DNA from: an uncultured Gammaproteobacteria bacterium
Lineage (GTDB): Bacteria > Patescibacteriota > Patescibacteriia > Patescibacteriales > UBA12465
Direction of reading: 5' to 3'
Assembly (NCBI GenBank): GCA_964470695.1
Contig: CAYYDR010000001.1
Location: 593,997-657,996 of the forward strand
DNA: 64,000 bases
Part shown: positions 5,820-58,625 of the stretch, piece by piece
Numbering within the stretch: the first letter of the stretch is position 1
Layout: each line of letters starts with the position of its first letter
Translations under genes and position numbers: made by a program
The notes under the pieces: generated by a model
Seen by the model: only the letters and a program-made list of their open reading frames with translations
Told to the model about the DNA's origin: nothing
The model's database searches: none

Positions 5820-5848
5820 ATTATAACAAATTATTGAAAGTTTGTCAT
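5820..5848 (-). promoter_or_regulatory. Sigma-70-type promoter candidate for the 5769..5290 small-protein unit
   Basis: Minus strand ATGACA-17 nt-TGtTATAAT. Confidence 0.45.
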
Positions 5849-8794: not shown

Positions 8795-8822
8795 TTGACA
8801 TAACTCTGATATTTGCTAAAAT
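8795..8822 (+). promoter_or_regulatory. Sigma-70-type promoter candidate for the tRNA-Asn gene
   Basis: TTGACA (8795-8800)-16 nt-TGcTAAAAT (8814-8822), about 50 nt upstream of the tRNA 5' end. Confidence 0.45.
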
Positions 8823-8874
8823 ATACATACAAAATGTTTTAGAACATTTTTGTTTTTTGGAGACAATTTAATAT

Positions 8875-9179
8875 TCCCGGGTAGCGCAGCGGTAGCGCAG
8901 TTGGCTGTGAACAATAAACGCAGCTTCCTCAGGCAACTGAGGTCGAATAACAAGGTGAATTGCTGGAAGCCTAAATCCGCAAGGATATGGTAATCAGCAG
9001 CCAAGCCCTGATTTTCAGGGAAGGTTCAGAGACTATCCCGAAAGGGAGTACTTCTCTACTTTAGAGCAGGAAGCGCCTTGCATCCGTTTTAACGGATGAT
9101 GATATAGTCCACCCCATTAGGAAACTATTGGATAAGTGTAACCAATTGGTCGTCGGTTCGAATCCGACCCCGGGAGCCA
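8875..9179 (+). tRNA. tRNA-Asn(GUU) interrupted in the anticodon loop by a group I intron; exons 8875-8908 and 9139-9179, CCA encoded
   Basis: Joined exons fold as a cloverleaf. Acceptor TCCCGGG/CCCGGGA, D stem GCGC/GCGC, anticodon stem GTTGG/CCAAT, loop CT-GTT-AA, T arm GTCGG-TTCGAAT-CCGAC, discriminator G then CCA. U1-A72, G73 and the CUGUUAA loop mirror E. coli tRNA-Asn. Confidence 0.85.
8909..9138 (+). ncRNA. Group I self-splicing intron (230 nt, no ORF)
   Basis: Conserved elements P AATTGCTGGAAG (8958-8969), Q AATCAGCAGCC (8992-9002), R GTTCAGAGACTAT (9024-9036), S GATGATATAGTCC (9098-9110). P1 pairs exon GGCTGT with GCAGCT (8920-8925), giving U.G at the 5' splice site. P7 is GACTA/TAGTC. 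GNRA-capped P2, P5, P8 and P9. Terminal G at 9138. Confidence 0.85.
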
Positions 9180-9220: not shown

Positions 9221-9249
9221 TTGACAAAGTTATAATAATATGATATAGT
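9221..9249 (+). promoter_or_regulatory. Sigma-70-type promoter candidate for ORF 9370
   Basis: TTGACA (9221-9226)-17 nt-TATAGT (9244-9249). Confidence 0.5.
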
Positions 9250-12503: not shown

Positions 12504-13742
12504 ATGTGGCTAGCTTTTAAAAAAGCCCTAGATAATGATTTCTTCCGGTTAATTAATAACTGGATTTTAGGAATTACCATATTAGCAATTTTCCTCTCCG
12601 CCTGGCTCAGACCAAACTATTTATCATTTCAATTAGAGAGCTTCCCGCCTGATTTAGTGCACTTCATTTTTTTTCTTTTTTATATTCTACTGCTCAGTTA
12701 TACCATTCTAAGCTTCACTACTATAAAAAGAACTAAATTAAGTCTTTATTTATACGGTCTGGCTATTCTATTACTTACTATTTCTCCTCCCTTATTATCC
12801 ATGGATATAGGAGGCTATATTTTAGGAGCAAAAAATATTATTTCCCCTGATAGCCGGACTTATTTAGACGCTCTGCGCGGCGCCGCTCCCTGGGCCAAAG
12901 AAATGTCTAATATCTGGTGGCTAGATTACCCAACCGTCTATGGCCCAACTTTTCAGACTATTGCTCTAACTAGTCTAATTGCTTCGCCGTTCGGGCTTTT
13001 AGCGACAATATTAATCTATAAATTAATAGGGCTGGCGGGATTTTTGTCTGTCCTTTATTTATTTTGGCTCATCGCGCGAGACCGGGGGCTTGAGGAAAGA
13101 AGACTCTGGCTATTAGCCCTTAACCCCGCCCTGCTCATCAATTGGCTTCTAGAGGGGCATAACGATATTTTTATCGCCCTCGGCCTATTAGGAACGCTTT
13201 ACTGCCTAGATAGAAAAAAACTCTGGCCCACCTGGTTATTATTTACGCTGACTATTTTTATTAAATATACCGCTCTAATCTTTTCGCCGATTTTATTTTT
13301 TAAAAACAATAAATTTAGTTTAAAAAATGCCTTAGGATTTTTACTCTTAACCGGCTTAGCTTTCCTGGCCTTCTTTAAAATAAGCGGCCTAAGCTTAAGT
13401 CTTTTTTCTCATAATCTATTTTTCTTAAACCAGTGCTTTTATCATTGTTCGCCCTTAGTCTATTTATTTCAATTCACTGGCTCCGCCCAATTCATCATTC
13501 GCCTGGCCTTGTTCGCCATTCTATACGTTCTAATTACCTGGCGTTATTTATATAAACAGACTGATTATTTAAAATTTATTTTCTGGTCCGGCCTAGCCTT
13601 ATTTTTTGTCCAAACCACCTGGCTCACGCCCTGGTATCCGACTATAATTATTCCGATTGGATTGCTCATAAAAGACAAAAAATACCTCTACTTAGTCATC
13701 TTGGTCAGCTGGTATTCTCTTTTGCATTATTTCGGCCTCTAG
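12504..13742 (+). CDS. Polytopic integral membrane protein, GT-C/DUF2029-like glycosyltransferase candidate
   Basis: 412 aa, more than 10 TM helices. LNPALLINWLLEGHNDIF loop resembles GT-C mannosyltransferase-like families. Unverified. Confidence 0.6.
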   Translation: MWLAFKKALDNDFFRLINNWILGITILAIFLSAWLRPNYLSFQLESFPPDLVHFIFFLFYILLLSYTILSFTTIKRTKLSLYLYGLAILLLTISPPLLSMDIGGYILGAKNIISPDSRTYLDALRGAAPWAKEMSNIWWLDYPTVYGPTFQTIALTSLIASPFGLLATILIYKLIGLAGFLSVLYLFWLIARDRGLEERRLWLLALNPALLINWLLEGHNDIFIALGLLGTLYCLDRKKLWPTWLLFTLTIFIKYTALIFSPILFFKNNKFSLKNALGFLLLTGLAFLAFFKISGLSLSLFSHNLFFLNQCFYHCSPLVYLFQFTGSAQFIIRLALFAILYVLITWRYLYKQTDYLKFIFWSGLALFFVQTTWLTPWYPTIIIPIGLLIKDKKYLYLVILVSWYSLLHYFGL

Positions 13743-15488: not shown

Positions 15489-16799
15489 TTAGTAATCTCT
15501 TAACTTCTCTAAACCCTTAAACTTTCTAATTTTCTCTAGTGCCTTAGATTCAATCTGGCGAATACGCTCGCGAGTAACCTCAAACTCTTGGCCGACTTCT
15601 TCTAAAGTATGGGCGACGCCATCAATTAAACCAAAGCGCATTTCTAAAATTTTCTGCTCGCGCGGCGAAAGCTGGGCGACAATATTTTTTACATAATCCT
15701 TTAAAAGCTGCAAAGCGGCCGCTCTATCAGGCGTAACATTTTTAACATCCTCAATAAAGTCTTCTAGAGTTGAGTCTTCATCATCATCACCAATAGTCGT
15801 TTCTAAAGAAATAGTGTCCTGAGAAATCTTCATAATATAGCGCACCTTATCAAGTTCTTCGCCCATTTCGGAAGCAATTTCATCGGCTAACGGCTCGCGG
15901 CCTAATTCCTGGATTAAATTGCGCTGGACCTGCTGGAACTTATTAATGGTTTCTACCATATGGACCGGAATACGAATGGTTCTAGACTGATCAGCTAAGG
16001 CGCGGGTAATGGCCTGACGTATCCACCAGGTCGCGTAAGTAGAAAATTTATAGCCTTTGCGATATTCAAATTTTTCCACTGCTCTAAATAAACCAATATT
16101 CCCTTCTTGAATCAAGTCTAATAAGCTCATACCCTTAGCGCCGGCGAACTTTTTAGCAATGGATACGACCAAGCGCAAGTTAGCTTCAATAATTTTTTTC
16201 TCGGCTTCTTTATCGCCCTTTTCTTTACGCTTCGCTAGCTCTACCTCTTCGTCGCCACTCAGCAAAGGAACCTTGCCAATTTCTTTTAAGTACATCTGGA
16301 TAGAATCAGCGCTTAACTTTGACAAGTCAACGTTAAGGGCGTTCTGGTGCGCTAAGGCGCGTCCGGTTAAGGCTGGCTCAGCCGCTTTCTTTTCGGCCGT
16401 ATCTAAAATACGCCCGGAGTCTTCCATAATTCTCACGCCGCTTTTCTGTAAGTCGCCTAAAAAAACATCATAATCATAAACATATTCCTCAACCTCAGGA
16501 AATAAATATAAAAGCTCAGTTTCGGTAATGAAGCCCCTCAGACGCCCTTTATCAATCAGATTTTGAAGCTGCTCCGGGGTCGGTTTAACGGCCGGACGCG
16601 GCTCTCTCTCATGGGCTACGTGTTTAACTTTTTTAGCGCTATGGCGGCTAAAATCTTTTTTAGATTTATTATGCTTGCTAGCCTTATTATGCTTAGCAGG
16701 CGCCGCTTTCTTAGCCGGACTATGCTTAGCCGGTTTTTTAGGCGCCGCTTTAGCGGCCGCAGTTTTCTTAGTTTTTTGCTTGCTAGTTTTAGTAGCCAT
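15489..16799 (-). CDS. rpoD: RNA polymerase primary sigma factor with Lys/Ala-rich N-terminal tail
   Basis: 436 aa. Regions 1.2-4.2: [68 protein letters not shown]. Confidence 0.95.
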
Positions 16800-16806
16800 A
16801 GTATTA

Positions 16807-18615
16807 TTAAGAAGTCATTAAATTTTTTAACTCATTCATTAACCGTTCTAACTTAGCCTGGTCGCCGGCTTTCTCGGCCTGGGCAATTTCTTTCTGTAGT
16901 TTCTGGCTCTCGCGCTGCCGGCCATATTTTCTCAGTTCTGAAATGATATTAATTATTTCCGCTTTAACCTGGTTAACTTCATAGTTATAAAAATCTTTTT
17001 CACCCAACAGAATCAACTTATCTAAAAATTTTTCACCTCCGCTGCCTCCTTCGGTTAAATATAAGCGAAAATCATCATAATCTAAAGAGGCCGTTCTATT
17101 ATAGTAGATTATTAGATTCTTGTAAAACCCGGCTAAGTCATCGTCAGTTAAAAACTCGGGCTCTAAATTACTGACGCTATAGCTAATAAACTCTGGAAAT
17201 TTAACGATTAAAGAAAATAGGAGCTCAGCTAATTTATCAGCCCGGCTGGTTTCGGAAATTATCTCTGGGGCTTTCTTAGCGACTGCCTTGACTGTCCCCT
17301 TATCCTTTAGTACGCCATGCTTAGCTTGCCACTTCAAAAACTCTTCCCTAGTATCATTCTCATCAAAATCCAACTCCTCGCTCAAACGCTTCAGCCAGTG
17401 TCCTTGTTCCATCTTACTCGCCACTAAATCTATCATCGCAAACATTTTATCGCTAACAATCCGCTTATTATCCAGCTTCTTCAAATCAACTCCGGCGCTG
17501 ACTTTATCAAAATAATATTCTAGCATCGGTCGGGCATTTTCTACCGCCTTTTTAAACTCATCAGGATTGTTTTTTAAACATTCATCCGGATCCTTGCCGT
17601 CGCCGAGCGTTATAATCTTTAAGTTCATTTCTTGGGCCAAGACCTCTTTAATACCCCTGTCCGCCGCCATTTGGCCAGCTTTATCCATATCAAACAATAA
17701 GGCGACATTAGTGGTAAAACGCTTCAGAAGGGCCACCTGCTCGGTTGTAAGTGCCGTTCCCGAAGAAGCCACGACATTCTTAAAGCCATGATTATGGCAG
17801 GCAATCACATCCATCTGCCCCTCTACGACTATGGCTAATTCATCCTGCCTAATAGCATTCTTAGCCTTATTTAAAGCATAGAGGACGCGGCTCTTATCAT
17901 AAACCTTGGTCTGAGTAATATTAATATATTTCCCCATTTTTTCCGTCTTTTCTTTGGCCGGATTAACGCGGGCGGTAAAGGCAATTAAATTATTATTAAC
18001 ATCCCAAATCGGGAACATAATCCGATCGCGAAAACGATCATAATAACCGCGCCCACCCTCTTTCTTAACGACTAAGCCAGCCGAAAAAATTTCTTCATCC
18101 GTATATTTCTGCCCCGTTAAGGGCCTAGCCTTCAAAAATTTATATAAACCATCCCAGGCATCCTGACTATAACCTAGCTGCCAATCTTTAATTACTTCTT
18201 CGCTTAAGCCCCGACGCGTTAAATATTCGCGCGCTTCCTTGCCAATCGGCTCATGTAAAAGATGGGCGTAATATTTGCCGGCTAATTCCAAAATATCCAA
18301 CAAGCGATTACGCTGCGAATATGACTCGGGATTTTCGTATTTTAAGACTACGCCCGCTTTAGGAGCGAGGAGCCGCAAAGTCTCCATGAAGCCCAAGCCT
18401 TCTTTTTCCATGACAAAAGCAAAGACATCGCCGCCCCGGCCACAGCCGAAACAATGCCAAATCTGCTTATCCGGAGAAATAACAAAAGACGGCGTCTTTT
18501 CATTATGAAAAGGACACAGAGCTTGAAAGTTAGCCCCCACCGCTTTAACTGGAGCATATTCGCGAATTACTTCAACGATGTCCAGCTTAGATTTTATTTC
18601 TTCAGCTTGGCCCAT
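16807..18615 (-). CDS. dnaG: DNA primase
   Basis: 602 aa. Zinc finger [22 protein letters not shown] and [14 protein letters not shown]. Confidence 0.95.
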
Positions 18616-22715: not shown

Positions 22716-24104
22716 TTAAAATTCAGCATTCTTCGGCGTGCGCGGAAAAGGAATAACATCACGGATATTGGCCATACCAGAAATATACATGAGTAGTCTT
22801 TCAAAGCCTAAGCCAAAGCCCGCATGTTTAACCGAGCCGTATTTTCGTAAATCTAAATACCAAGCGTAATCTTCTTTCTTAAGACCCATTTCTTCCATGC
22901 GCTTCTCTAAATTCTCTAAGCGCTCTTCCCTCTGGCTGCCGCCGATTATTTCGCCTATGCCCGGCGCCAGTAAATCCATAGCCGCTACAGTCTTACCGTC
23001 TTCATTCAGGCGCATATAGAAAGCCTTGATATCCTTAGGATAATCAGTCACAAAAACCGGCTTCTGGAAAACTTTATCAGTTAAATAACGCTCATGTTCA
23101 GTCTGTAAATCAATACCCCATTTAACCGGATAAACAAACTTCTCGCCTGACTTCTCTAAAATTTCAATCGCTTCCGTATAAGTAACGCGGCCGAAATCAG
23201 AATTCAAAATATTATTTAGGCGCTCACTAATTCCCGGATCAATAAACTTATTAAAGAAAGCCATTTCTTCCGGCAATTCTTTTAAGACATAATCAATCAG
23301 GTACTTCAACATCTTCTCGGCTAAATTCATGTCGTCAGCTAAATCAGCGAAGGCCATTTCCGGCTCCATCATCCAGAATTCAGAAGCATGGCGAGTCGTA
23401 TTAGAATTTTCGGCCCTAAAAGTCGGGCCAAAAGTATAAACTTTATTTAAGCCCATAACAAGCGCCTCAGCATTTAACTGGCCGCTGACGGTGAGTCCCG
23501 CCTTTTTACCAAAAAAATCTTCAGCGTAATTTATTTCTCCCTTAGGATCGCGGAGGGGATTTTTTAAATCTAAAGTCGTAACCTGGAACATTTCACCCGC
23601 GCCCTCGCAGTCGCTCGTAGAAATTATCGGGGTATGGATATAAGCAAAACCCTCTTCCTGAAAAAATTTATGAATCGCAAAACTTAAAACAGATCGTAAA
23701 CGAAAAACTGCGGAAAAGGTATTGCTGCGCCCTCTTAAATGCGCGATGGTGCGTAAAAATTCAAAACTATGTTTTTTCTTCTGGAGCGGATAATCGGCCG
23801 GGGCTTCATTAATAATATTAATTTTCTCGGCTTTAAGTTCAAAAGCCTGGCCGGCCGCCGGCGATTCTACTAAGGTTCCCTCAACTTCTAAAGAAGAGCC
23901 AACGGCAATATTTTCTACAGCCGCAAAATTACTTAAATCAGAAGCAAATACAATCTGCAGACCCTTAAAAAATGAGCCGTCATTAATCTCAATAAAGCCA
24001 AATTCCTTAGAGCTGCGGGCGGTTCTAACCCAGCCAGCCACGGTTATTTTTTGGTTAAGATGAGAAGCGGTATCGCGATATAAGGTTTTTATAGTTATAT
24101 TCAT
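22716..24104 (-). CDS. asnS: Asparagine--tRNA ligase
   Basis: 462 aa, class IIb. [33 protein letters not shown]. Confidence 0.93.
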
Positions 24105-24157: not shown

Positions 24158-25474
24158 TTAGGGAGTCAGGCGCTTGACATCGCGCGGCAAGAAACAAGCC
24201 TCTTTAACGCTAGTGAGCCCCAACATTTTCATAACAATACGACCCGGCCCCATGCCAATTCCGCCGTGATTAGGGCAGCCGTAACGGAAAAAATTAATAT
24301 AATCCTTTAATTCTTCTAAATTCATTCCCTTCTCAATCGCCTGTTTTTCTAAAATTTCCACTCGGTGTTCGCGCTGCGAGCCGGTCGTGATTTCTAAACC
24401 GCGGTATAAAAGATCAAAGCTTTTAGTTAAACCGGGATTATCCTCATGACGCATATGATAGAAAGGACGAGCTTCAATCGGATAGTCGGTTACGAAAACA
24501 AAGTCATGCCCTGTTTCTTTTTTAATGATTTCGCCCAATTCTTTTTCTTCTTCAGTAGAAAAATCCCAGTCTTTTTCGCTCTTAATGCCCGCTACTTTTA
24601 ACTTAGCCTTAGCTTCCGCCAAAGTTAATTTTGGAAACGGTTTGCTCGGCACCTCAACCTCTATTCCTAAATCCTCTTTGACTCTAGTAAAGCCGGAAAT
24701 AAGCAAATCCTCTTCAATAGACATTATGTCAAAATGCGAGTTAATATAGGAAACCTCAAAGTCCCAGCCGGTAAACTCGGTTACATGCCTAGTCGTAAAT
24801 GATAACTCCGCTCGAAACACCGGACCAACCATAAAAACTTTTTCCAAACCGCTGGCCATCGCCATCTGCTTATAGAATTGCGGGGATTGAGAAAGATAAG
24901 CTTTACGATCAAAATATTTAACTTCAAATACTTCCGAGCCGGTTTCTGATGAGGTATTCATTAAACAAGGCGTATAAATCTGGAGAAAATTATTCTGACG
25001 GAAATAATCGCGACAGCCTTCTTCTAATTTAGACCAAACCTTAAAGACCATTTGATGTTCGCTCTGCCGCAGATCCAACCAGCGCCAGTCTAAACGATTA
25101 TCTAGGTTAGCTTCATTATTAGCCGTAGTAAAAACCGGAATCGGCAAATTTTCGTCAGCCAAGGAGATTAATTTTGCTTCTTTAACTAGTAATTCAAAAT
25201 CTTTAACCGGGTTAGGGTCATTTTTTTTAGTAGGTTTTTCTTGTAAAATACCCTTTATTTCTATTACGCTCTCTAATCTAAATTTTTCTGCCAAATTATA
25301 AACATCATTATTGCCATCAGAATTAGAAACGAAAACGGACTGCATAGTTCCGGAAATATCGGCTAAATCAACAAAAATAACGCCTTTATGAGCGCGTAAA
25401 TTACGAACCCAGCCGGCAATTGTTACTTCTCCCGTAGCCTGTTTCTTAGCCTCAGCAATTAATATTCTTGACAT
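24158..25474 (-). CDS. aspS: Aspartate--tRNA ligase, archaeal/eukaryal type
   Basis: 438 aa. RWLDLR, SQSPQFYKQ, FRAELSFTTRH, GSQREHR, GIGMGPGR. Confidence 0.9.
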   Translation of the reverse strand: MSRILIAEAKKQATGEVTIAGWVRNLRAHKGVIFVDLADISGTMQSVFVSNSDGNNDVYNLAEKFRLESVIEIKGILQEKPTKKNDPNPVKDFELLVKEAKLISLADENLPIPVFTTANNEANLDNRLDWRWLDLRQSEHQMVFKVWSKLEEGCRDYFRQNNFLQIYTPCLMNTSSETGSEVFEVKYFDRKAYLSQSPQFYKQMAMASGLEKVFMVGPVFRAELSFTTRHVTEFTGWDFEVSYINSHFDIMSIEEDLLISGFTRVKEDLGIEVEVPSKPFPKLTLAEAKAKLKVAGIKSEKDWDFSTEEEKELGEIIKKETGHDFVFVTDYPIEARPFYHMRHEDNPGLTKSFDLLYRGLEITTGSQREHRVEILEKQAIEKGMNLEELKDYINFFRYGCPNHGGIGMGPGRIVMKMLGLTSVKEACFLPRDVKRLTP

Positions 25475-25646: not shown

Positions 25647-28600
25647 TTAAAATTCTGAAAAAAATTCGGCCTGCCCTTTGTTCTTAGCTATTTCTTTCAA
25701 AAGTTCCTTAGCTAAAGATGTTCTCTTGTCAGGTAAATTATCATAAAGCATCTGCTTAAGTGGAATAGCTTCTTTTAGAGACTTGCCATCTAAAACATCC
25801 CCATTTCTAATAATATTAAATTTATCACTCTGTCCTGTTTCTGATAACCTGTTAAAAGCCATATGAAATTTTTCATATTCTTTAGTTTCAAAATGATAAA
25901 TACCATCTCGTTTAGCCATGACCAGTTCGCCTAAATTAGTTCTGGCCCCATTGGGCAAATCTTTTAAATTTTCAATGGAAGTAAAGGCTTTCTTGGCCTC
26001 ATCTACGCCTATATCCTTAAACTCTGACCCTGATTTATAGGCAGATGGATCTTCTACGGCTGATTTATTTACATCAGCCTTAGCCTCCTCTAAAGACGAT
26101 GACTCACCAGACCCCTTACCGGTTTCAATGTTGGCCGCATTATCAGTCTTGCCAGAAACATCACTATGAACTTCTTGAGCGGCAGCTGCACCGTTTCCGC
26201 TGTCCGAAGAAGAGCTAGCGTCCTGCTCAAAGCCTAAACGGGACGATTTCGGACTATGGTCAAATAAAACTGATTCTGAAGTAACGGCTGACGATATTTT
26301 CCCATTATTCAAGACGTTTTCCGTGCCCTCCTTAATGACCACGTCGTCTATCTTAATACCATGTTTATCATGGTACAAAAATTCATGTTGGGCTCTAATA
26401 TCAGCTTTTGATTTTTCAATAAATTGCTTCTTAAGCTCTTCATAGTTTACGTCCTTCCCCTTGTTTGGAAGTTCTGACGCGCTGTTTTTAGGAGCAACGA
26501 CTTCCTCAGCTTTTACCCCACCCTGACTAGCACGTTCTAAATGCCCCGGATCAAAACCGTCGCCCTTTTCTATCTCAATACTATAGTTTCCTTTCGCATC
26601 CTGATTTAGCACTATCTTATTGCCTTCAAAAACTTTATCAGTTAATTCTCCTGAATTATTAATTGCCTTTCCAGTCTGAATCTGAGACCAGGCTTCTAAG
26701 GCTTTAGCATCGTTAACATCGCCCTTATAGCCCAATTCCGCGGCGTGATCTTTAAAAATCTGGTTAGTAGAATGCCAGACGGAATCGGTATGACCGGGTT
26801 TAAGATTTTCGTTAGTAATTATGTCTTCATAAGCTGAGGACTTAGGGGCTATAGGCGCTTCCTCTAATCCAGGCGTTTGACTACTACCACTAGCGGAGGA
26901 AGTTTCTAAATCAGGTATTTTACTGCCGCCACTAGCTGGCGGTGTCTCTAAATTTTGACCGCTTACACTATCAGGCTTATTCCCGGTGATTCTTTCTATT
27001 ATACTGCCGGAATCGCCTCTAAGACCGCCGATTGGCTTAACCATGGTAGCATCAGCAACAGCTCCACTAGAGGGCGGTACTGGTACTTCCAAATCGGGTA
27101 ACTGGCTATCACCGCTAACTAGCGGCATTTCTAGACCAGGGGCAACTTCTCCAGATGATCCAGCGGCTGTTGTGTCTACTGGGACTGTTTCAGTCTGAGT
27201 TGTGTCTGTCTCAACTTGATTATTATCTGCGCTTGGTTCCTCATCTACAATTTCATCAGTTAATTCTGTCTTTCCGGAATGAGAATGGTTAAGATGACGA
27301 GATAATTCATGGACCATTCCGCCCACTCCTAGACCAACCACGGCGCCGCCGACCCGTCCAACAACTTTTATTATTCTGTCATTATTTTTATACTTTTTAT
27401 CACTTTTTATTTCCTTCTCCAAACTCTCGTTTAAAGCGGCCACATTAAATTTTTTATTTCCGCTCCCTAAAGCAATATCCTCGGTCTCCTCTACTTCTTT
27501 TTTTAATTTTAAATACTCCTCAGGGCTATTCTTTTGAAAATTTTTATCTAATAATTTTTTTCTAGCGGCCGCATAATCTGATTTATTGGTTATTTTTTTA
27601 TCAGTGACAATATTGTAAGAAGCCTCATATTTCTGATTCTCTTTATTTATATAGTGGTCAACTACGGCTCCGCCTAAGCGGTAACCCGCAAGAGCTGATA
27701 AGGCCAATCTGGTGCCAGGCAATTCCCTGGCCGCTAAACCCAAACCAGCTAAAACGGCCGCGCTTACCGTCTTCTCACGAGTAGATTCACCGCTAATTAC
27801 CTTATCCATTGTCTTGATAATTTTATCAAGCTTGGTAGTCTTATTTAAAGCGGCCTCTTTTTCAGCATTTATTTTATCAATATCATCCAATCCTTCTAAG
27901 GTTCTAATAATTTTGTCTTTATAGTCCATTAATTTATCCGGCGGGATGTTCAGCATGCCTAAACTATTTTGTTCTTCAATATATTTATCAATCAGGGCAG
28001 TTCTTTCTCCTTTTTCGCCAAGATTAACTTTTTCAATCTCAACCTTTTTCTTAAGACTAATAGAAGCGGCTAAGCGATCTTGCAGGGTAATCTTTTCTTC
28101 ATCAGTTTTTTTAGCTTTTATTTCGGCCGTCTTTTTAGCCAAATCTTTAGCTAAAACTTTATCAGTTATCAAACGATCAACCACTCTAGCAACAGCAATG
28201 GCCCCCATACCAAAACCAACCCCCATACCAAAAGTCGGTATTGTGGAAGTTGCAAATAACACGCCAGCCCCCATATAGACGGCTGTTTTTGTTACTGCTA
28301 GACCGATTCTTTTAGTACGACTTGCACTCTTATTAATTTCATCTTTAGCCTCAGCAACAAGACTTTCCTCTTGTACTTGGTAAATTTCCCTTATTGTATC
28401 TTCGGAAAGTCCTGTCTTAGTCGCTAATTCTTTTAACTTACTATCCAGATTCTTATCTAGCTCCTTGGCCAGTAAAGAATCTGACAAACCTTTAAGTTCT
28501 TCCTCTAAATAGGACTGATTGGTCTCTATAAAACGTACTCCTGGGGTTTCTATTTTCCCTTCTTGTATTTTCAATTTTTCTAAATGCTGGCGATAGTTAA

Positions 28601-29189
28601 GCGGCAAGTCAATTTCCGGCTCAACAACTTCTGGTTCTGGGGTAGACGGAACCTGATCAGGATTAGGTTGAGTCTGATCCGGGGTAACCGGATCTTGATT
28701 TTGAGTCTGAGCTTGATCAGGACTAACTGGGGCCTGATTTTGAGCCTGAGCTTGATCAGGACTAACTGGGGCCTGATTTTGAGCCTGAGCTTGATCCGGA
28801 GCGGCCTGATTTAAATTAGCATCTGGAATCGGCACGGATTGATTATTAGCAACCGTCTGTCCGGCCTCTCTATTCTTAATTGCATTTTTAACATTATCAA
28901 AACTAGGGTCGTATTCTACGCCAAAATCCGCTACAAACTTCTGTTTAGCCGTTTCCAGCTTTCCTTCAAATTTTGCAATCTTTTCTGAGGTGTTAGCACT
29001 CTTCTTCTCATTGTTAATTTTTCTAATACTATCTAGTCGCTCTTTAACAGAGGTTAGAAAAGCCTTCATTTCTGCTGGAGACATGGCCTTTTTCTCAACA
29101 CTAGCCTGGACCTCTGGAGCCGCTTCAGTTCCATTAACTGGCTTATCAGTTTTTTTAAAAATTTTGAAAAAATTTTCAGCAAATTTCAT
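25647..29189 (-). CDS. Very large low-complexity membrane/surface protein with tandem repeats
   Basis: 1180 aa. Coiled-coil-like K/E-rich stretches. At least three Gly-rich hydrophobic segments (for example GAGVLFATSTIPTFGMGVGFGMGAIAVA and VGGAVVGLGVGGMV). QAQAQNQAPVSPD repeats and S/G/P/E-rich repeats. Confidence 0.8.
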   Translation of the reverse strand: MKFAENFFKIFKKTDKPVNGTEAAPEVQASVEKKAMSPAEMKAFLTSVKERLDSIRKINNEKKSANTSEKIAKFEGKLETAKQKFVADFGVEYDPSFDNVKNAIKNREAGQTVANNQSVPIPDANLNQAAPDQAQAQNQAPVSPDQAQAQNQAPVSPDQAQTQNQDPVTPDQTQPNPDQVPSTPEPEVVEPEIDLPLNYRQHLEKLKIQEGKIETPGVRFIETNQSYLEEELKGLSDSLLAKELDKNLDSKLKELATKTGLSEDTIREIYQVQEESLVAEAKDEINKSASRTKRIGLAVTKTAVYMGAGVLFATSTIPTFGMGVGFGMGAIAVARVVDRLITDKVLAKDLAKKTAEIKAKKTDEEKITLQDRLAASISLKKKVEIEKVNLGEKGERTALIDKYIEEQNSLGMLNIPPDKLMDYKDKIIRTLEGLDDIDKINAEKEAALNKTTKLDKIIKTMDKVISGESTREKTVSAAVLAGLGLAARELPGTRLALSALAGYRLGGAVVDHYINKENQKYEASYNIVTDKKITNKSDYAAARKKLLDKNFQKNSPEEYLKLKKEVEETEDIALGSGNKKFNVAALNESLEKEIKSDKKYKNNDRIIKVVGRVGGAVVGLGVGGMVHELSRHLNHSHSGKTELTDEIVDEEPSADNNQVETDTTQTETVPVDTTAAGSSGEVAPGLEMPLVSGDSQLPDLEVPVPPSSGAVADATMVKPIGGLRGDSGSIIERITGNKPDSVSGQNLETPPASGGSKIPDLETSSASGSSQTPGLEEAPIAPKSSAYEDIITNENLKPGHTDSVWHSTNQIFKDHAAELGYKGDVNDAKALEAWSQIQTGKAINNSGELTDKVFEGNKIVLNQDAKGNYSIEIEKGDGFDPGHLERASQGGVKAEEVVAPKNSASELPNKGKDVNYEELKKQFIEKSKADIRAQHEFLYHDKHGIKIDDVVIKEGTENVLNNGKISSAVTSESVLFDHSPKSSRLGFEQDASSSSDSGNGAAAAQEVHSDVSGKTDNAANIETGKGSGESSSLEEAKADVNKSAVEDPSAYKSGSEFKDIGVDEAKKAFTSIENLKDLPNGARTNLGELVMAKRDGIYHFETKEYEKFHMAFNRLSETGQSDKFNIIRNGDVLDGKSLKEAIPLKQMLYDNLPDKRTSLAKELLKEIAKNKGQAEFFSEF
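28670..28813 (-). repeat. 39-bp in-frame tandem repeat inside the 1180-aa gene
   Basis: GCTTGATCAGGACTAACTGGGGCCTGATTTTGAGCCTGA occurs twice exactly (28711-28749, 28750-28788), with degenerate copies on both sides. Encodes (A/D)PVSPDQAQAQNQ. Confidence 0.9.
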
Positions 29190-34559: not shown

Positions 34560-35234
34560 TTATTTAGCTTTTTTAGTCTCAGTGCCTTTAGCTTCTTTCT
34601 CGGTTTTATTTTCTTTATTCTGGTGAGACTCCTTAGCCGCTTCTTTACCCTCAGGGCGACGCAGATTACGAAGCGCCTCAATCGTACAACGAGCGTTATT
34701 AATTTTATTATTAGAACCTAACGCTTTACTAGTAATATTTTTAACGCCAGCTAACTCCAAAATGACGCGGGTAACACCGCCGGCGATAACGCCGCGGCCC
34801 TTTTTAGCCGGCTTAATCATAATCAGAGCGGCTCCCATTTTCTGTAGTACGGCGTGCGGAATAGTATCATTAACAAAAGGAACGCTAACCATATCTTTCT
34901 TAGCCTTATTAACCGCCTTATTAACCGCCATGGTAACATCAGCGCCTTTACCGACGCCAACGCCAACGCTGCCCTTTTTATCACCAATAGCAATACAAGC
35001 CCGAAAATTCATTCTTTTTCCTCCGGCCATAACACGAGTAACCCGAGCGACTTCTAAAATGCGCTGTTCCATGTCATCTTTCGGTCTATCGTCGCGGTTG
35101 CCACGTGGACCACGGCCGCGGCCACCAAAATTCTTCTTTTGGCCTCCGTATAAATCCTTGGCGACAGTTTCAGCTGCTCCGGTTTTAGCGCCGGATGTCG
35201 GGGAAACTGCTTGTGTTTTTTTCTCTTCGGACAT
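34560..35234 (-). CDS. rpsE: 30S ribosomal protein S5 (uS5) with N- and C-terminal charged extensions
   Basis: 224 aa. Core VARVTRVMAGGKRMNFRACIAIGDKKGSVGVGVGKG. Additional G/R-rich N-terminus and K/E-rich C-terminus. Confidence 0.95.
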   Translation of the reverse strand: MSEEKKTQAVSPTSGAKTGAAETVAKDLYGGQKKNFGGRGRGPRGNRDDRPKDDMEQRILEVARVTRVMAGGKRMNFRACIAIGDKKGSVGVGVGKGADVTMAVNKAVNKAKKDMVSVPFVNDTIPHAVLQKMGAALIMIKPAKKGRGVIAGGVTRVILELAGVKNITSKALGSNNKINNARCTIEALRNLRRPEGKEAAKESHQNKENKTEKEAKGTETKKAK

Positions 35235-50075: not shown

Positions 50076-51476
50076 TCACCATTTAAACCGTCTCCTTAGT
50101 AGGAGACGGTTTTTTGTTATATAAATAATAATGACTAAAACCAAATAATATCCCCCGCCCCAATACCAATTAAAACCCTTAATATTTATAGCCGACCAAC
50201 TGGGCGCCGCTAATAGATTAGAAATAATAAAAATAAATTTTAATATTAAATAAGAAGGCAAAAACCATAAAAATCCTAAAATCGGGATTAAGGCTGATAA
50301 AAATACAGCGATGATAAGCGATGATAATAAGGGCGGAAAGGTCCAAAGCACTAAAATATTAGCCAGCGGGGCAATTAATGATAACTGCTTAAAGTTAATT
50401 AAGGCGATTGGCAATATTACAATCTGCGCAACTAAAGTTAAATTAAGAGTATCTAATATTGTTTTCCCAATATTTTTAGAGCGATGTTTCAATTTTAATT
50501 TATCTAAAAATTTAACCGTTAGGCTCTCACCTAAAGGATAAATATAAATTATCCCTAAAATAGCCAGGAATGACAATTGGAAACCAATATCATCGCGTAG
50601 TAGGCGGGGGTTAAAAAATAGCATGAGGGCCGCGCTAAAAATTAAAGCCTTGACCAGAGAGCTAGTTCTCTCATAATAAACAGCTAGAAAAGCCAGGGCG
50701 CCCATTAAAGACGAACGGACGGCAGAAGCGGAAAGACCAGTAATTAAGGGATATAAAAATAAAAATATAAAAATTAATTTCAGGGCGCGCCGGCGGCTAA
50801 AACCCACGCTCAATAGAAAATTAATAACCATGGCGCTTAAAATTGTAATATGCGAACCAGAAATTGCGATCATATGACTCAGGCCAACGCGAGAAAAAAT
50901 AGCCAAGTCCTCCCTTTCTACCGTCCGGCGATAACCCAATAATATAGCATCAGCCAAACCGGCGACTGGCTCAGGCAAATTAGAATCAATAATCAGTTTA
51001 AGGGTTTGTTTAAATTCTATTAGTTTTTTATAAGCCAATTGCGAATAATTTAGCGACCCAGTTTCTAAACTTATTTTTGGCCTATACATAACAGAATATA
51101 TATCATAACGAGCCAAGTAAGCTTCATAATCAAATTCGTCTATCTCAGGAGGTGCCTGTAACTGGCCACTAATTTTTAAATAATCGCCATAATCATAGGC
51201 TGGGTATAGATTAGTCGTAACTAAAACTTGTCCCTTAATTTGGCCTTTAACGCAAATAGTCAGGCGGCGGCTTTTAATATCAACATCCGCCTCTTCGCAA
51301 ACTTGGCCGATGAAGCTTAAATTTCGGCCGTTGTAATAAGCCAAGTCACCCCCTGAAATCTCCGGACGAAAAGCTTTAGACCGGAACCCTAAAATAAAAA
51401 TTCCGCCTATGAAAAACAGGTTAAATGCCAGAAATATTCTGGCTGGGGGCCAGGAAAGTGGAGAAAATAAAGACAT
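50076..51476 (-). CDS. comEC: ComEC/Rec2-family DNA internalisation channel protein (no beta-lactamase-like domain)
   Basis: 466 aa, polytopic. HMIAISGSHITIL competence-domain motif. TGA stop. Confidence 0.8.
   Translation of the reverse strand: MSLFSPLSWPPARIFLAFNLFFIGGIFILGFRSKAFRPEISGGDLAYYNGRNLSFIGQVCEEADVDIKSRRLTICVKGQIKGQVLVTTNLYPAYDYGDYLKISGQLQAPPEIDEFDYEAYLARYDIYSVMYRPKISLETGSLNYSQLAYKKLIEFKQTLKLIIDSNLPEPVAGLADAILLGYRRTVEREDLAIFSRVGLSHMIAISGSHITILSAMVINFLLSVGFSRRRALKLIFIFLFLYPLITGLSASAVRSSLMGALAFLAVYYERTSSLVKALIFSAALMLFFNPRLLRDDIGFQLSFLAILGIIYIYPLGESLTVKFLDKLKLKHRSKNIGKTILDTLNLTLVAQIVILPIALINFKQLSLIAPLANILVLWTFPPLLSSLIIAVFLSALIPILGFLWFLPSYLILKFIFIISNLLAAPSWSAINIKGFNWYWGGGYYLVLVIIIYITKNRLLLRRRFKW
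50086..50116 (+). terminator. Intrinsic terminator of rpmB, embedded in the 3' end of convergent comEC
   Basis: AACCGTCTCCttagtaGGAGACGGTTttttt. Confidence 0.75.
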
Positions 51477-54256: not shown

Positions 54257-54766
54257 TTAACGTTTGCTCCATTGCGGGGCTTTGCGGGCTTTGCGTAAAC
54301 CCGGCTTCTTTCTTTCCACCTGGCGCGGGTCGCGAGTCAAAAAGTCATTTACCTTCAAAGCTTCCTTAGTAGCTGGATCAAGGGTTAAAATAGCGCGGGC
54401 AATCCCTAAGCGGACAGCACCAACCTGACCTTGTTTACCGCCACCCTGAGCTAAAATAGAGAAATTATAGTCACGGGCATGGCCGGTCGCCTTTAAAGGC
54501 TGGGCGATAATGTTCGCTCCTTCACCAGCAAAATACTGGCTAGCGCGCATGCCATTAACCATGATAATGCCTTTGCCGTCTTCATATAAACGGACCTTCG
54601 CCACCGCATTTTTACGGCGACCGACGGCCTTAATATATTTACCAACGAATTCAGCGGTTTCATTTTTGGCCCAATCCTTTTCTTCTTCCGCCGGTAACTC
54701 AGTTACTAATACTTCGTGCGGATCAATTTCTCTGGCCACCTGAGGTTTTGCTTTTCTTTCTACCAT
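54257..54766 (-). CDS. rpsI: 30S ribosomal protein S9 (uS9) with N-terminal extension
   Basis: 169 aa. GRRKNAVAKVRL, GGGKQGQVGAVRLGIARAL, TRDPRQVERKKPGLRKARK. Confidence 0.95.
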   Translation of the reverse strand: MVERKAKPQVAREIDPHEVLVTELPAEEEKDWAKNETAEFVGKYIKAVGRRKNAVAKVRLYEDGKGIIMVNGMRASQYFAGEGANIIAQPLKATGHARDYNFSILAQGGGKQGQVGAVRLGIARAILTLDPATKEALKVNDFLTRDPRQVERKKPGLRKARKAPQWSKR

Positions 54767-55128: not shown

Positions 55129-55479
55129 TTATACTAATTCAATCTGCACCATTTCCGCGCCGTCGCCAGCCCGAGTGCCTAATTTAGTCGTACGAGTATA
55201 GCCGCCCGGACGAGTCTTATAGCGAACGCCAAGCACCTCAATCGCCTTCTTAACCGAATTCTTCTGCAGTAAAACTTTCAAAAGACCACGACGAGCTGTT
55301 AAATCACCAGCTTTAGCCGCGGTAATTGATCTTTCTACTAAAGGACGGACCGCTGCGGCCTTAGCCCTAGTTGTCTTAACCTTTTCGTACAAAAGAATAC
55401 TAGAAGCCAAGTTACGCAACATGAGTTCGCGTGGGCCTTTCTTCCGATCCAGGATTTTATTTTTATTTCTGTGACGCAT
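55129..55479 (-). CDS. rplQ: 50S ribosomal protein L17 (bL17)
   Basis: 116 aa. MRHRNKNKILDRK, GGYTRTTKLGTRAGDGAEMVQIEL. Confidence 0.95.
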   Translation of the reverse strand: MRHRNKNKILDRKKGPRELMLRNLASSILLYEKVKTTRAKAAAVRPLVERSITAAKAGDLTARRGLLKVLLQKNSVKKAIEVLGVRYKTRPGGYTRTTKLGTRAGDGAEMVQIELV

Positions 55480-55502
55480 ATCGTTCTATTACAAATTACC
55501 AA

Positions 55503-56333
55503 TTATTTTTTAGCTTTTTTAGCTTTTTTTTCTTTCTTCTCTGGTTTTTCAGCCTTCTCTTCCTCATCATCTTCGCTGACCGCTTCTTCCACGACTTCAG
55601 CCTCAACAACCTCTTCGCTAGCAGCCGGAGCTTCTTCGGCGCCGGAGCTAATAGCCAAGAAAGATGAATATTGATCAACTAAAATTTTAACCGCTTCATT
55701 AAAAGCTTCTTCAGCGCTAATAGTGCCATCAGTCTTAACCGTTAAAATCAATTTATCCCAGTTAGTCATTTTACCAACGCGGGTACTTTCCACATTGATG
55801 CTAACGACGATAACTGGAGAAAAAATAGAATCTATTTCAATATAACCAATTTCTCTATTATCTTTTTTAGTTCCTTCAGCCATTTTATAGCCACGACCTT
55901 CTTTCACTAATATTTCTGCCTCTAGACTGCCTGATTCATCGGTAATATGAGCGATAACTAACTCCGGGTTCTTAATAGAAACCTGAGAATTTTTAACTAT
56001 ATCACCGGCGGTTACTACTTTTTTACCCTTTACTTTCAGATCAAGGCGAACCTCTTCTTCAGTAAAAGCTTTAAGGCGTAACTGCTTAAGATTTAAAAGT
56101 ATTTCTAGAACATCCTCTTTAACATGCGGCAAAGCCATAAACTCATGGCTAGCTCCCTTGATCTTTACGCCAATAACCGCGGCGCCAGGCAAGGAAGATA
56201 AAAGAACGCGACGAAGGGCGTTACCAAGAGTCATGCCATAACCTGGAAATAAAGGCTCAACTGTAATGATCCCCTCGTGAGGATTGCTACCTTTTTTGAA
56301 TTCAATTTTTTTTGGTAGAGCAATGTTTTGCAT
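55503..56333 (-). CDS. rpoA: DNA-directed RNA polymerase alpha subunit, N-terminal domain only plus charged low-complexity tail
   Basis: 276 aa. GYGMTLGNALRRVLLSSLPGAAV and the dimerisation/assembly domain up to about residue 228. The rest is AEEAPAASEEVVEAEVVEE...KKEKKAKKAKK. Confidence 0.93.
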   Translation of the reverse strand: MQNIALPKKIEFKKGSNPHEGIITVEPLFPGYGMTLGNALRRVLLSSLPGAAVIGVKIKGASHEFMALPHVKEDVLEILLNLKQLRLKAFTEEEVRLDLKVKGKKVVTAGDIVKNSQVSIKNPELVIAHITDESGSLEAEILVKEGRGYKMAEGTKKDNREIGYIEIDSIFSPVIVVSINVESTRVGKMTNWDKLILTVKTDGTISAEEAFNEAVKILVDQYSSFLAISSGAEEAPAASEEVVEAEVVEEAVSEDDEEEKAEKPEKKEKKAKKAKK

Positions 56334-56385: not shown

Positions 56386-57015
56386 TTATTTTGAGTAATA
56401 CTCAATAATTACTTGAACGTTTAAATTTAATGGCAAATCAGTGTCTTTTGGTTCATGTAGAACCTTGGCGCTTAAATCAGAATTATCAAAATTCAACCAG
56501 CTTGGTCTATCAGCCTTCTTAAGTTTTTCACCTAAGTTTTTAAAATAGCGGTTAGACTGGCTAGATTTCTTAATTTTTAAAACTTGACCGACTTTAACAT
56601 TGAAAGAAGCAATATCAGCCTTACGACCATTAACAGTAAAGTGGCCATGATTAACTAATTGACGAGCTGCGGCGCGGGAAGTCGCCCAACCGAGACGATA
56701 AATAACGTTATCTAAACGCATTTCTAAAGCTCTGAGGAAATTCTTACCGGCATCACCGCTCTTCTTGGAAGCTTTTTCAAAAGTCAAACGGAATTGTTTT
56801 TCCATTAAGCCATAGAATTTCTTAGCTTTCTGTTTTTCCGCTAACTGCAAACCGTAGTCGCTAGTTCTCTTATGTCCTTTAGGGCCATGAAAACCAGGAG
56901 CGTAGTTACGCTTAATTATCGCGCATTTCGGAGTAAAGCAGCGTTCCCCTTTTAAAAACAGCTTTTCGCCCAAACGGCGGCATTGTTTGCATTTGCTATC
57001 AATATTTCTTCCCAT
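56386..57015 (-). CDS. rpsD: 30S ribosomal protein S4 (uS4)
   Basis: 209 aa. CKQCRRLGEKLFLKGERC, YGLQLAEKQK, S4 domain RLDNVIYRLG. Confidence 0.95.
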   Translation of the reverse strand: MGRNIDSKCKQCRRLGEKLFLKGERCFTPKCAIIKRNYAPGFHGPKGHKRTSDYGLQLAEKQKAKKFYGLMEKQFRLTFEKASKKSGDAGKNFLRALEMRLDNVIYRLGWATSRAAARQLVNHGHFTVNGRKADIASFNVKVGQVLKIKKSSQSNRYFKNLGEKLKKADRPSWLNFDNSDLSAKVLHEPKDTDLPLNLNVQVIIEYYSK

Positions 57016-57045
57016 ATCTTTTTAGACTTTATGAATATTTTATAA

Positions 57046-57618
57046 TTATACCCTTCTCGGTTTCTTCGGACGGCAGCCATTATGAGGAACCGGAGTAACA
57101 TCTTTAATTGAAGTGACATTTAAACCATTAGCATTTAAAGCGCGGATAGCCGCTTCACGGCCAGTCCCGACGCCGGAAACAAAAACGCTAACCTCTTCTA
57201 AACCATATTCTTCACGCGCTTTCTGGGTAGCAATTTTAGTAATAATCTGAGCGGCATAAGGAGTCGCTTTTTTAGCGCCCTTAAAACCAGCCAAACCAGC
57301 GCTAGCCCAAGAAATGACGTCGCCACCATTATCAGTCAAGGTTAACATCGTGTTATTATAGGTCGCCTGAATATAAGCGCGGCCGATTTTAACGATTTTA
57401 GCAGTCTTCTTTTTCTTTTTCTTAATCAGCTTTTTCTTACTGCGAGCCGCTTTATTCTTTTCTAATTTCTGCTTAATTTCTTCCGGTAATTCCTCAACGC
57501 TGGAATCAAAAGAAAAATCAGAGCCTTCCTTTTCTTCTTTCGGCTCTTTAGCTTCTTGACTGGCGCCTAGGGCGGCCGGAGTCACTTCTTTTTTAGTTTC
57601 TTTTACTTCTTCGGACAT
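57046..57618 (-). CDS. rpsK: 30S ribosomal protein S11 (uS11) with about 70-aa charged N-terminal extension
   Basis: 190 aa. Core [55 protein letters not shown]. Confidence 0.95.
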
Positions 57619-57665
57619 AATATTCTTAAAATTCTTAATTCGTAATTTTTAATTCGTAATTATGA

Positions 57666-58061
57666 TTAAGTCTTCTGTAAACCAGCCTTGCTCTTACCGC
57701 TACCCATAGTTACGCGCTTATTGCCACGAACAGTGCGGCTATTAGTCTTAGTTCTCTGACCACGGACCGGTAAATGCTTACCATGGCGCAAACCGCGGTA
57801 ACAACCGATTTCTCGTAAACGCTTAATATTACTGGCTACTTCACGACGCAAATCACCCTCAACCGTATATTTCTTCTCAACGATTTCGCGCAAAGTATTA
57901 ACTTCGCTTTCTTTTAAATCCTTAGTTCTGGTATCTTTATTAACTTTAGCTTCCGCCAAAATCTTATTAGATCTGGTCTGGCCGACGCCGTGGATATAAG
58001 TTAAAGCGATTTCTATTCTTTTGTCATTAGGGATGTTAACTCCCGCAATTCTTACTGCCAT
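57666..58061 (-). CDS. rpsM: 30S ribosomal protein S13 (uS13)
   Basis: 131 aa. [47 protein letters not shown]. Confidence 0.95.
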
Positions 58062-58076
58062 AATATTATAAAAAAA

Positions 58077-58190
58077 TTACCCCTGTCTCTGCTTATGCTT
58101 AGGGTTTTTACAAATAACGTGGACCCGACCTTCACGTCTGACCACCTTACAATCTTTACAAATTTTCTTAGCACTGGCTCTTACTTTCAT
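58077..58190 (-). CDS. rpmJ: 50S ribosomal protein L36 (bL36); below the ORF-track size cutoff
   Basis: Hand translation of the minus strand: [40 protein letters not shown] at 58190, TAA at 58077-58079. Confidence 0.95.
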
Positions 58191-58245
58191 ATTTAAAATG
58201 CATTAATCAAATTACGAAATAAATTTCTAAATCAGTCTGAAAAAT

Positions 58246-58503
58246 CTACATGCGGTAAGTGATGCGCCCTTTAGTTAAATCGTAGGGGCTGATTTGGAGC
58301 TTAACCTTGTCTCCTGGCAGAAGACGGATTTTATTCATCCGCATTTTACCGGATAAGTGAGCTAAAATCTCGTGGCCATTTTCCAAGGCTACTTTAAAAC
58401 TAGCCGCTGGCATCAGCTCTAACACCTCGCCCTGCATCTCAATAAAGTCCTTAGCATTAAGTATGGCAGAAGCCTCGCTAGTATTTTCTTTTTCTTTTGA
58501 CAT
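58246..58503 (-). CDS. infA: Translation initiation factor IF-1
   Basis: Track ORF extends to 58545. ATG 58503 gives [67 protein letters not shown]..., the S1-like IF-1 core with a short N-terminal extension. Confidence 0.92.
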
Positions 58504-58596
58504 TAACACAAAAAAATTTGATAAAGACTCTTGCCTCCTTATCAAAATTCTTTAAAAATTAGTTAAGTTATTTTGTATAATAATCTTAATAAAATT

Positions 58597-58625
58597 ATTA
58601 TAGAGATAAGATTAGAAGTTGTCAA
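58597..58625 (-). promoter_or_regulatory. Consensus sigma-70 promoter for the infA-rpmJ-rpsM...rpsI operon
   Basis: Minus strand TTGACA-17 nt-TATAAT, exact consensus hexamers, about 95 nt upstream of infA. Confidence 0.6.

Follow-up and report, generated by a model that had tools for sequence, protein, structure and literature searches.

A conserved acidic-then-basic tail in place of the alpha C-terminal domain in the RNA polymerase of Falkowbacteria-like Patescibacteria

Background

We describe the rpoA gene, which codes for RNA polymerase subunit alpha, in a stretch of 64,000 nucleotides from contig CAYYDR010000001.1 (assembly GCA_964470695.1, positions 593,997 to 657,996); "the window" refers to the whole of this stretch. 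The gene lies on the minus strand within an alpha operon, downstream of infA, rpsM, rpsK and rpsD and directly upstream of rplQ. Its 276-residue product is made up of an N-terminal domain (NTD), an acidic stretch and a short lysine-rich end, and lacks the C-terminal domain (CTD) of other bacterial alpha subunits.

The NTD of alpha serves in dimerization and as the platform on which beta and beta' assemble. The CTD is treated as near-universal. It binds the minor groove of A/T-rich UP elements, which it reads at strong promoters such as those of rRNA genes, and class I activators and several elongation factors dock on it.

Natural loss of the alpha-CTD has been described in Hodgkinia and Tremblaya, endosymbionts with extremely reduced genomes, and in the chloroplasts of Euglena, and a single sentence of the same paper states that the loss "is also present in Parcubacteria" (PMC8321222). 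The source cited there for this statement, Nelson & Stegen, says nothing about RNA polymerase in its main text. In Bacillus subtilis, deletion of the RpoA CTD mainly reduces expression of ribosome-synthesis and secondary-carbon genes that have UP elements (PMC4495994).

Results

An alpha subunit without a C-terminal domain

Translation of the open reading frame (ORF) at 55503..56333 (minus strand) gives exactly the 276-residue protein quoted in a first-pass annotation of the window, which had claimed that the alpha-CTD is absent and replaced by an acidic-then-basic low-complexity tail. The protein scores 251.7 bits against the TIGR02027 (rpoA) model (cut-off 227.8), and its Pfam matches are PF01000 (7.1e-30) and PF01193 (6e-22), with no other family. 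Identity to the alpha subunits of B. subtilis and Escherichia coli is 45-49% over residues ~6-230, and alpha subunits of solved structure in the PDB align to residues ~6-254 only, with E-values down to 2.3e-55. The NTD ends in ...SSFLAI at residue 228. An AlphaFold model based on a 92-sequence alignment has a confidence score (predicted local distance difference test, pLDDT) of ~97 across the NTD and of 43-64 for residues 230-276, which are predicted to be disordered; the structure prediction called for by the first-pass annotation thus gives a folded platform followed by a disordered tail.

Gene context agrees with this assignment. The order rpsM-rpsK-rpsD-rpoA-rplQ typical of the alpha operon is present in the window, where the four genes from infA to rpsD together span 56386..58545 (minus strand), and the longer order alaS-infA-rpsM-rpsK-rpsD-rpoA-rplQ-rplM-rpsI is the same in six relatives, with rplQ adjoining rpoA at a tight junction. 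No second alpha gene was found within the window. By these sequence criteria the protein is a genuine, putatively functional RNA polymerase alpha subunit of a Falkowbacteria-like genome of the Patescibacteria, also called the Candidate Phyla Radiation (CPR), and its intact NTD should still dimerize and assemble beta and beta'.

The helix-hairpin-helix alpha-CTD (PF03118) gave no Pfam match on the window alpha even at E<=10, residues 229-276 included, and matches to the NCBIfam rpoA models were confined to profile positions ~1-250, leaving the CTD part unmatched. The combination of CTD and flexible linker that characterizes bacterial RpoA is therefore not present in this protein. There is also no room for a CTD in a split ORF, as had been pointed out, with 23 nt between the rpoA stop codon and rplQ. 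All 64 kb of the window were searched in six frames with phmmer, tblastn and hidden Markov models (HMMs), using as queries the CTDs of E. coli and B. subtilis together with an HMM built from 57 homologues; neither the sequence nor the HMM queries gave a credible match elsewhere in the window. The best match was marginal (E=0.016) and was dismissed, as it extends over 22 of 69 model positions within rplW and is not in the frame of that gene. This negative carries weight because the same queries, in a positive control, detect the CTD in 91 (phmmer) to 107 (HMM) distant alpha homologues. The alpha-CTD has been evolutionarily deleted from the window alpha, and the holoenzyme lacks the alpha-CTD surface for UP elements, sigma region 4 and class I activators.

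A conserved tail in the window clade

The 48 residues that follow the NTD (229-276) are SSGAEEAPAASEEVVEAEVVEEAVSEDDEEEKAEKPEKKEKKAKKAKK. The first 31 of them contain 14 D/E and no K/R, and the last 17 contain 10 K and 3 E, so that the acidic-then-basic description stands. The tail was compared among close homologues, defined as the 120 best database matches (75-92% identity over the aligned part); those that carry a name are assigned to "Patescibacteria group" or "Candidatus Falkowbacteria". All 120 are 266-288 residues long and match PF01000 and PF01193 only, with a CTD in none.

Within this clade the acidic linker varies in sequence and length and keeps its composition. The basic end, EKKEKKAKKAKK in the window alpha, is conserved by position: K-K-x-K-K makes up the last five residues in 117-118 of the 120 proteins, following EKKEKK-like repeats. 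Among five related genomes the terminal codons show synonymous changes (AAA/AAG, GAA/GAG) that leave the peptide unchanged, and retention of the peptide despite this codon turnover indicates that selection acts at the protein level and not on the DNA. In the nearest relatives with a CTD, P0128 among them, the NTD is followed by an acidic interdomain linker of ~50 residues and then the CTD. Because these relatives already have a long acidic linker, the acidic block of the window alpha is probably the former interdomain linker, and the basic peptide is best read as the replacement of the CTD. We regard it as very nearly certain that this is a real, selected, CTD-less alpha with a conserved tail.

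AT-hook-type ends in the sister clade

A sister clade was collected by a search with P0122, the nearest representative of the 50%-identity clusters (~65% identical to the window NTD); the alphas retrieved are 64-78% identical to this query. Of these, 108 of 120 carry the motif [RK]GRP, mostly as KKRGRPKK, at a distance of 3-6 residues from the C-terminus, after an acidic stretch and at a position homologous to the basic end of the window protein. We take KKRGRPKK and KRGRPKK to be the canonical AT-hook core. AT-hooks bind the minor groove of AT-rich DNA. Ends of this kind recur in the distant clusters P0129, P0132 and P0134 and in a Veblenbacteria genome, and none of 107 CTD-bearing alphas has an AT-hook-type motif. 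A minority of the sister clade has lysine-rich ends, which indicates that the two kinds of end interchange. The low-complexity tail of the first-pass annotation is therefore present, yet it is not mere filler, given a basic end that is conserved position by position and has the AT-hook core in most of the sister clade.

Distribution across Patescibacteria

When the 150 best cluster representatives (clustering at 50% identity) were compared, ~50 complete proteins had a short charged tail and no CTD; the others are 300-350 residues long with the CTD present. A sample of named GTDB genomes contributed ~15 named CPR loci among the matches listed, none of them a close relative (best match 47% identical). 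Among these matches, the CTD is kept in Saccharibacteria, Microgenomates, Peribacteria and two Parcubacteria-group genomes, and is absent in one genome of Veblenbacteria, in two others of Parcubacteria/Patescibacteria and in a "Gammaproteobacteria" metagenome-assembled genome (MAG). At locus L005 (contig CAZQRI010000022.1), whose MAG bears the label "uncultured Gammaproteobacteria bacterium", the alpha gene is of CPR type: its product has no CTD and ends in an acidic linker plus KPKAKKKAKK. The label probably reflects a mistake in binning or in taxonomy.

A rough neighbour-joining tree of the NTD, a distance method without support values that was used only for the clustering of CTD-less forms, placed the window protein in a clade of 36 leaves, 30 of them without a CTD. 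Other forms without a CTD appear here and there between CPR sequences that have one, which points to several losses or to noise in the tree. As judged from these homologues, CTD loss is a lineage trait. It covers a whole CPR sub-radiation and not one genome, and in this respect goes beyond the first-pass annotation.

Promoters, sigma factor and other charged tails

The regular, near-consensus extended -10 promoters that had been described for the window are over-represented: TTGACA-N14-TGN-TATAAT with at most two mismatches occurs 11 times, against 0.74 expected. The promoter upstream of infA (Table 1) likely drives the operon that contains rpoA. Near-perfect sigma70 promoters also lie at 9221, 10635, 11299 and 14296 on the plus strand and at 5848 and 7784 on the minus strand, many with the extended -10 TG. 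Several directly follow the hairpin and T-run terminator of the preceding gene, for example aaaaaataggctaaagttagtctatttttt before 9221. Intergenic DNA in the window is 71% AT.

The primary sigma factor, encoded by rpoD next to dnaG (16807..18615), begins with a basic tail that resembles a histone H1 tail. The N-terminal segment has a net charge of at least +10 in 117 of 120 sigma homologues, with a median of +25. As predicted from its genes, the holoenzyme of this lineage has a polycationic tail on sigma as well as on alpha; that of sigma could take part in upstream anchoring or pair with the acidic linker of alpha.

Charged extensions also occur on ribosomal proteins. S11, the product of rpsK, has an N-terminal acidic-then-polylysine extension of ~60 residues that is found in relatives too (188-207 residues in length). 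S9 (54257..54766) and L23 (41494..41967) have charged low-complexity N-terminal extensions, S5 (34560..35234) has a mixed-charge C-terminal tail and L3 (42655..43428) an acidic one, all on the minus strand. A screen of terminal composition passed four of 77 long ORFs, to which L23 and S9 were added by eye; all are translation or transcription proteins. A genome-wide habit of charged tails was considered and set aside as an explanation: at four of 77 long ORFs it is a contributing tendency that does not account for the conservation of the motif.

Discussion

The first-pass annotation is partly supported by these results. Its inference that upstream-DNA and activator contacts must work differently in this lineage is reasonable, and the part that concerns activators fits the reported absence of CRP/FNR-type activators from CPR (PMC12531629). 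A point that it missed is that a minimal contact with upstream DNA was probably retained rather than lost, as suggested by the conserved basic end together with the AT-hook-type end of the sister clade.

We propose that the CTD was exchanged for a cationic peptide that would be tethered over upstream DNA and offer no docking surface for activators. Each polymerase would have two such basic ends, one per alpha, which may touch the backbone or the minor groove of the AT-rich sequence that lies upstream of the -35 element. The contact would be with the AT-rich minor groove in the AT-hook clade and electrostatic in the window clade, and in either case the helix-hairpin-helix CTD would give way to a generic "UP-like" anchoring that needs no activator. 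The acidic linker would serve as a flexible spacer and might also keep the basic end covered until it encounters DNA. Activation of the class I type through the alpha-CTD would be impossible in the lineage, and promoter strength would rest on near-consensus -35 and extended -10 elements, possibly aided by the basic N-terminal tail of sigma. The analogy with known polymerases is direct, since the minor groove of A/T-rich DNA is what the alpha-CTD reads as well. A DNA-anchoring function of the alpha tail is in our view an even call. For the explanation as a whole, a genuine alpha with a deleted CTD, a conserved tail and an anchoring role, the balance of the evidence is slightly favourable. The AT-richness of intergenic DNA, the enrichment of strong consensus promoters, the conserved polycationic tail of sigma and the reported lack of CRP/FNR-type activators in CPR are consistent with it.

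Several points weigh against it. Contact between the tail and DNA is deduced from sequence, and any polyanion would be a ligand for oligolysine, RNA and the acidic linker of alpha itself among them. The GRP core is found in the tails of none of the 120 window-clade proteins, the window protein included, which end in EKKEKKxKKxKK. Even in the sister clade the Pfam AT_hook model (PF02178) scores 10.1-13.1 bits, below its gathering score of 17.4. Acidic rather than basic ends are found in 9 of ~65 CTD-less relatives. In the 1-60 nt upstream of 16 candidate -35 boxes the AT content amounts to 0.65-0.71, not above the intergenic value, so that no UP-like signal is seen at these few sites. With charged extensions on several ribosomal proteins, a general genomic tendency contributes. 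The search for a free-standing CTD gene covered 64 kb of a contig of ~678 kb, with none there.

The tail may instead be functional with a partner other than promoter DNA. The basic end could bind nascent RNA, rRNA or an acidic protein, and the acidic block could mimic DNA or bind a basic partner (a ribosomal or nucleoid protein, or the N-terminal tail of sigma), with a role in regulation, transcription-translation coupling or assembly. Polyampholytes with acidic and basic blocks commonly mediate protein-protein or protein-RNA contacts; the conserved N-terminal segment of sigma70, whose net charge is about +20 to +25, would be a possible counterpart of the acidic linker in alpha; the oligolysine end of the window clade has no base or groove specificity; and rpoA sits among ribosomal protein genes whose products have similar extensions. 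However, the established function of the AT-hook core found in the sister clade is binding to the DNA minor groove, with the WhiB family as an example, the peptide sits on the same linker, where a DNA-binding domain used to be, and no candidate partner was identified in this analysis. We consider a non-DNA partner unlikely.

A functionless remnant is less likely still, and we hold it to be distinctly improbable. Under this explanation the old linker persisted after deletion of the CTD, its charged low-complexity sequence drifts neutrally, and the polymerase works without any contact between alpha and DNA. It is compatible with the finding that E. coli RNA polymerase with alpha truncated at ~235 assembles and carries out basal transcription (PMC8321222), with the extensions on S11, S9, L23, S5 and L3 in the window, with the purely acidic or very short tails of some CTD-less relatives and with the lack of AT enrichment upstream of candidate promoters. 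Neutral drift does not predict a K-K-x-K-K motif held at the last five positions in nearly all close homologues through synonymous codon turnover, nor an RGRP core just 3-6 residues away from the C-terminus in 108 of 120 sister proteins, nor the absence of this motif from the CTD-bearing alphas.

An artefact, be it a frameshift from sequencing or assembly, a pseudogene cut short or a gene split so that the CTD is encoded close by, has a negligible chance and is effectively refuted for the rpoA locus: the tail is A-rich and of low complexity (AAA/AAG runs), a type of sequence prone to indel errors, but the gene is not a frameshift, because its coding sequence and flanks (930 nt) were assembled independently and identically in two Logan assemblies from different sequencing runs, which also match the NCBI contig, and this disposes of the objection that the first-pass annotation had raised against itself; moreover, the architecture is common to all 120 close and ~50 distant homologues, the stop codon lies immediately before rplQ, and nothing CTD-like occurs in the other reading frames of the tail region or in the rest of the window.

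The CTD-less alpha with its putative anchoring tail can be set beside several known systems. It shares with canonical RpoA (TIGR02027; PF01193, PF01000 and PF03118) the same orthologous folded NTD, the same operon position and a linker that leaves the NTD at the same place. Canonical RpoA has a CTD at the end of that linker, whereas the linker of the window alpha ends in a basic peptide of 12-17 residues with no determinants of the 261/265/287 type. The alphas of Hodgkinia, Tremblaya and the Euglena plastid are alike in having lost the CTD and retained the NTD in small genomes. In contrast to these, the NTD here is not eroded, the loss extends across a large, free-standing environmental radiation, and there is a conserved module of acidic linker and basic peptide that is not described in PMC8321222. 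General erosion of RNA polymerase of the endosymbiont or plastid type was not found; the NTD is complete and highly conserved, the tail is conserved, and sigma keeps regions 1.2 to 4.

Archaeal RpoD/RpoL and eukaryotic Rpb3/Rpb11 likewise form an alpha-like assembly platform without a DNA-binding C-terminal domain. Unlike archaeal RpoD and eukaryotic Rpb3, the window protein is clearly a bacterial alpha by sequence, and the archaeal D-subunit models score below their cut-offs on it (NF001988, 32.7 bits versus 153; NF011548, 21.1 versus 194). E. coli alpha(1-235) and the B. subtilis RpoA deletion also give a CTD-less polymerase that assembles and transcribes; however, these laboratory truncations are artificial and reduce the expression of sets of genes, whereas here the CTD-less form is the natural wild type with an added basic peptide.

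The AT-hooks of WhiB7 and CarD belong to factors associated with RNA polymerase. Actinobacterial WhiB-like proteins on sigma-A region 4, Myxococcus xanthus CarD and eukaryotic HMGA all have a short basic peptide of the form K/R-G-R-P-K/R that is like the end of the sister-clade alphas. An AT-hook on a polymerase-bound protein, placed to reach AT-rich DNA just upstream of the promoter, would be common to WhiB-like proteins, CarD and, as we propose, alpha. In WhiB-like proteins and CarD the hook is on a separate regulatory factor, whereas here it is fused to core alpha and present in two copies per enzyme; the window clade differs from the AT-hook factors in having oligolysine in place of the GRP core.

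In the literature searched, we found no description of AT-hooks or lysine tails on bacterial alpha or in CPR. Bare loss of the CTD has a thin precedent; the replacement module, its breadth in CPR and the matching basic tail on sigma appear undescribed. Tentatively, and with somewhat less assurance than for the explanation of the window protein, we suggest that a large CPR sub-radiation (Falkowbacteria-like, Veblenbacteria-like and other Parcubacteria-type lineages) may have rebuilt its contact with upstream DNA from two tethered peptides, AT-hook or oligolysine on acidic linkers, together with an H1-like sigma tail, giving a previously undescribed holoenzyme without the alpha-CTD/activator interface.

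A major environmental radiation that is naturally without the alpha-CTD raises the question of what sets promoter strength and regulation there. With a conserved AT-hook or oligolysine peptide at the exact place of the CTD, there is a concrete, biochemically testable hypothesis of minimal, sequence-tolerant upstream anchoring; if true, a short linear motif would have taken over in nature from a folded domain that binds DNA. For annotation, it follows that a short rpoA in a CPR MAG is genuine and no truncation. The trait also bears on promoter prediction in CPR and on the heterologous expression of CPR genes.

Features of the window

Table 1. Coordinates of the rpoA locus, its operon and promoter, and the sigma factor gene in the window
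Feature	Position	Strand	Remarks and evidence
rpoA coding sequence	55503..56333	minus	276 residues plus stop codon (55503-55505); ORF list, sequence
Alpha NTD, residues 1-228, intact	55650..56333	minus	PF01193, PF01000, PDB alignment, AlphaFold
Acidic linker, predicted disordered, residues 229-259	55557..55649	minus	tail listings, pLDDT
Basic C-terminal peptide KAEKPEKKEKKAKKAKK, residues 260-276	55506..55556	minus	conservation of homologue tails
Spacer from rpoA stop to rplQ start, 23 nt	55480..55502	minus	too short for a CTD exon or ORF
rplQ (L17), directly downstream of rpoA	55129..55479	minus	ATG at 55479; PF01196 on orthologous neighbours
rpsD, upstream in the rpoA operon	56386..57015	minus	ORF list
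rpsK, upstream in the rpoA operon	57046..57618	minus	charged N-terminal extension; ORF list
rpsM, upstream in the rpoA operon	57666..58061	minus	ORF list
infA, upstream in the rpoA operon	58246..58545	minus	ORF list
Promoter TTGACA-N17-TATAAT, 52 nt upstream of infA	58597..58625	minus	both hexamers perfect, no TGn; motif search
rpoD, primary sigma factor, 436 residues	15489..16799	minus	Pfam sigma70 regions 1.2, 2, 3 and 4
Sigma N-terminal basic tail, first ~70-80 residues, Lys/Ala/Pro-rich	about 16560..16799	minus	sequence

Apart from the transcription genes, the window contains a group I intron (Rfam RF00028, 89 bits, 8826..9131, plus strand) in a tRNA gene, the whole feature spanning 8826..9179. 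The 5' exon of this gene starts from TCCCGGGTAGCGCAGCGGTAGCGC (8875) and the 3' exon ends in ...GGTTCGAATCCGACCCCGGGAGCCA (about 9179). ARAGORN in its standard mode predicted no tRNA in the window; with introns allowed it predicted a tRNA Thr-UGU, of doubtful identity, with a 230-nt intron. A promoter-like site lies nearby at 8795.

Two ORFs, of 1180 residues (25647..29189, minus strand) and 412 residues (12504..13742, plus strand), have no Pfam match at E<=1e-5 and encode large proteins for a very small genome. Tandem genes for class II aminoacyl-tRNA synthetases of the D/K/N type, with OB anticodon-binding domains, are located at 22716..24104 and 24158..25474 on the minus strand. The window also encodes the large subunit of a class I ribonucleotide reductase with an ATP-cone (1066..3582, plus strand) and a ComEC-type competence protein (50076..51476, minus strand).

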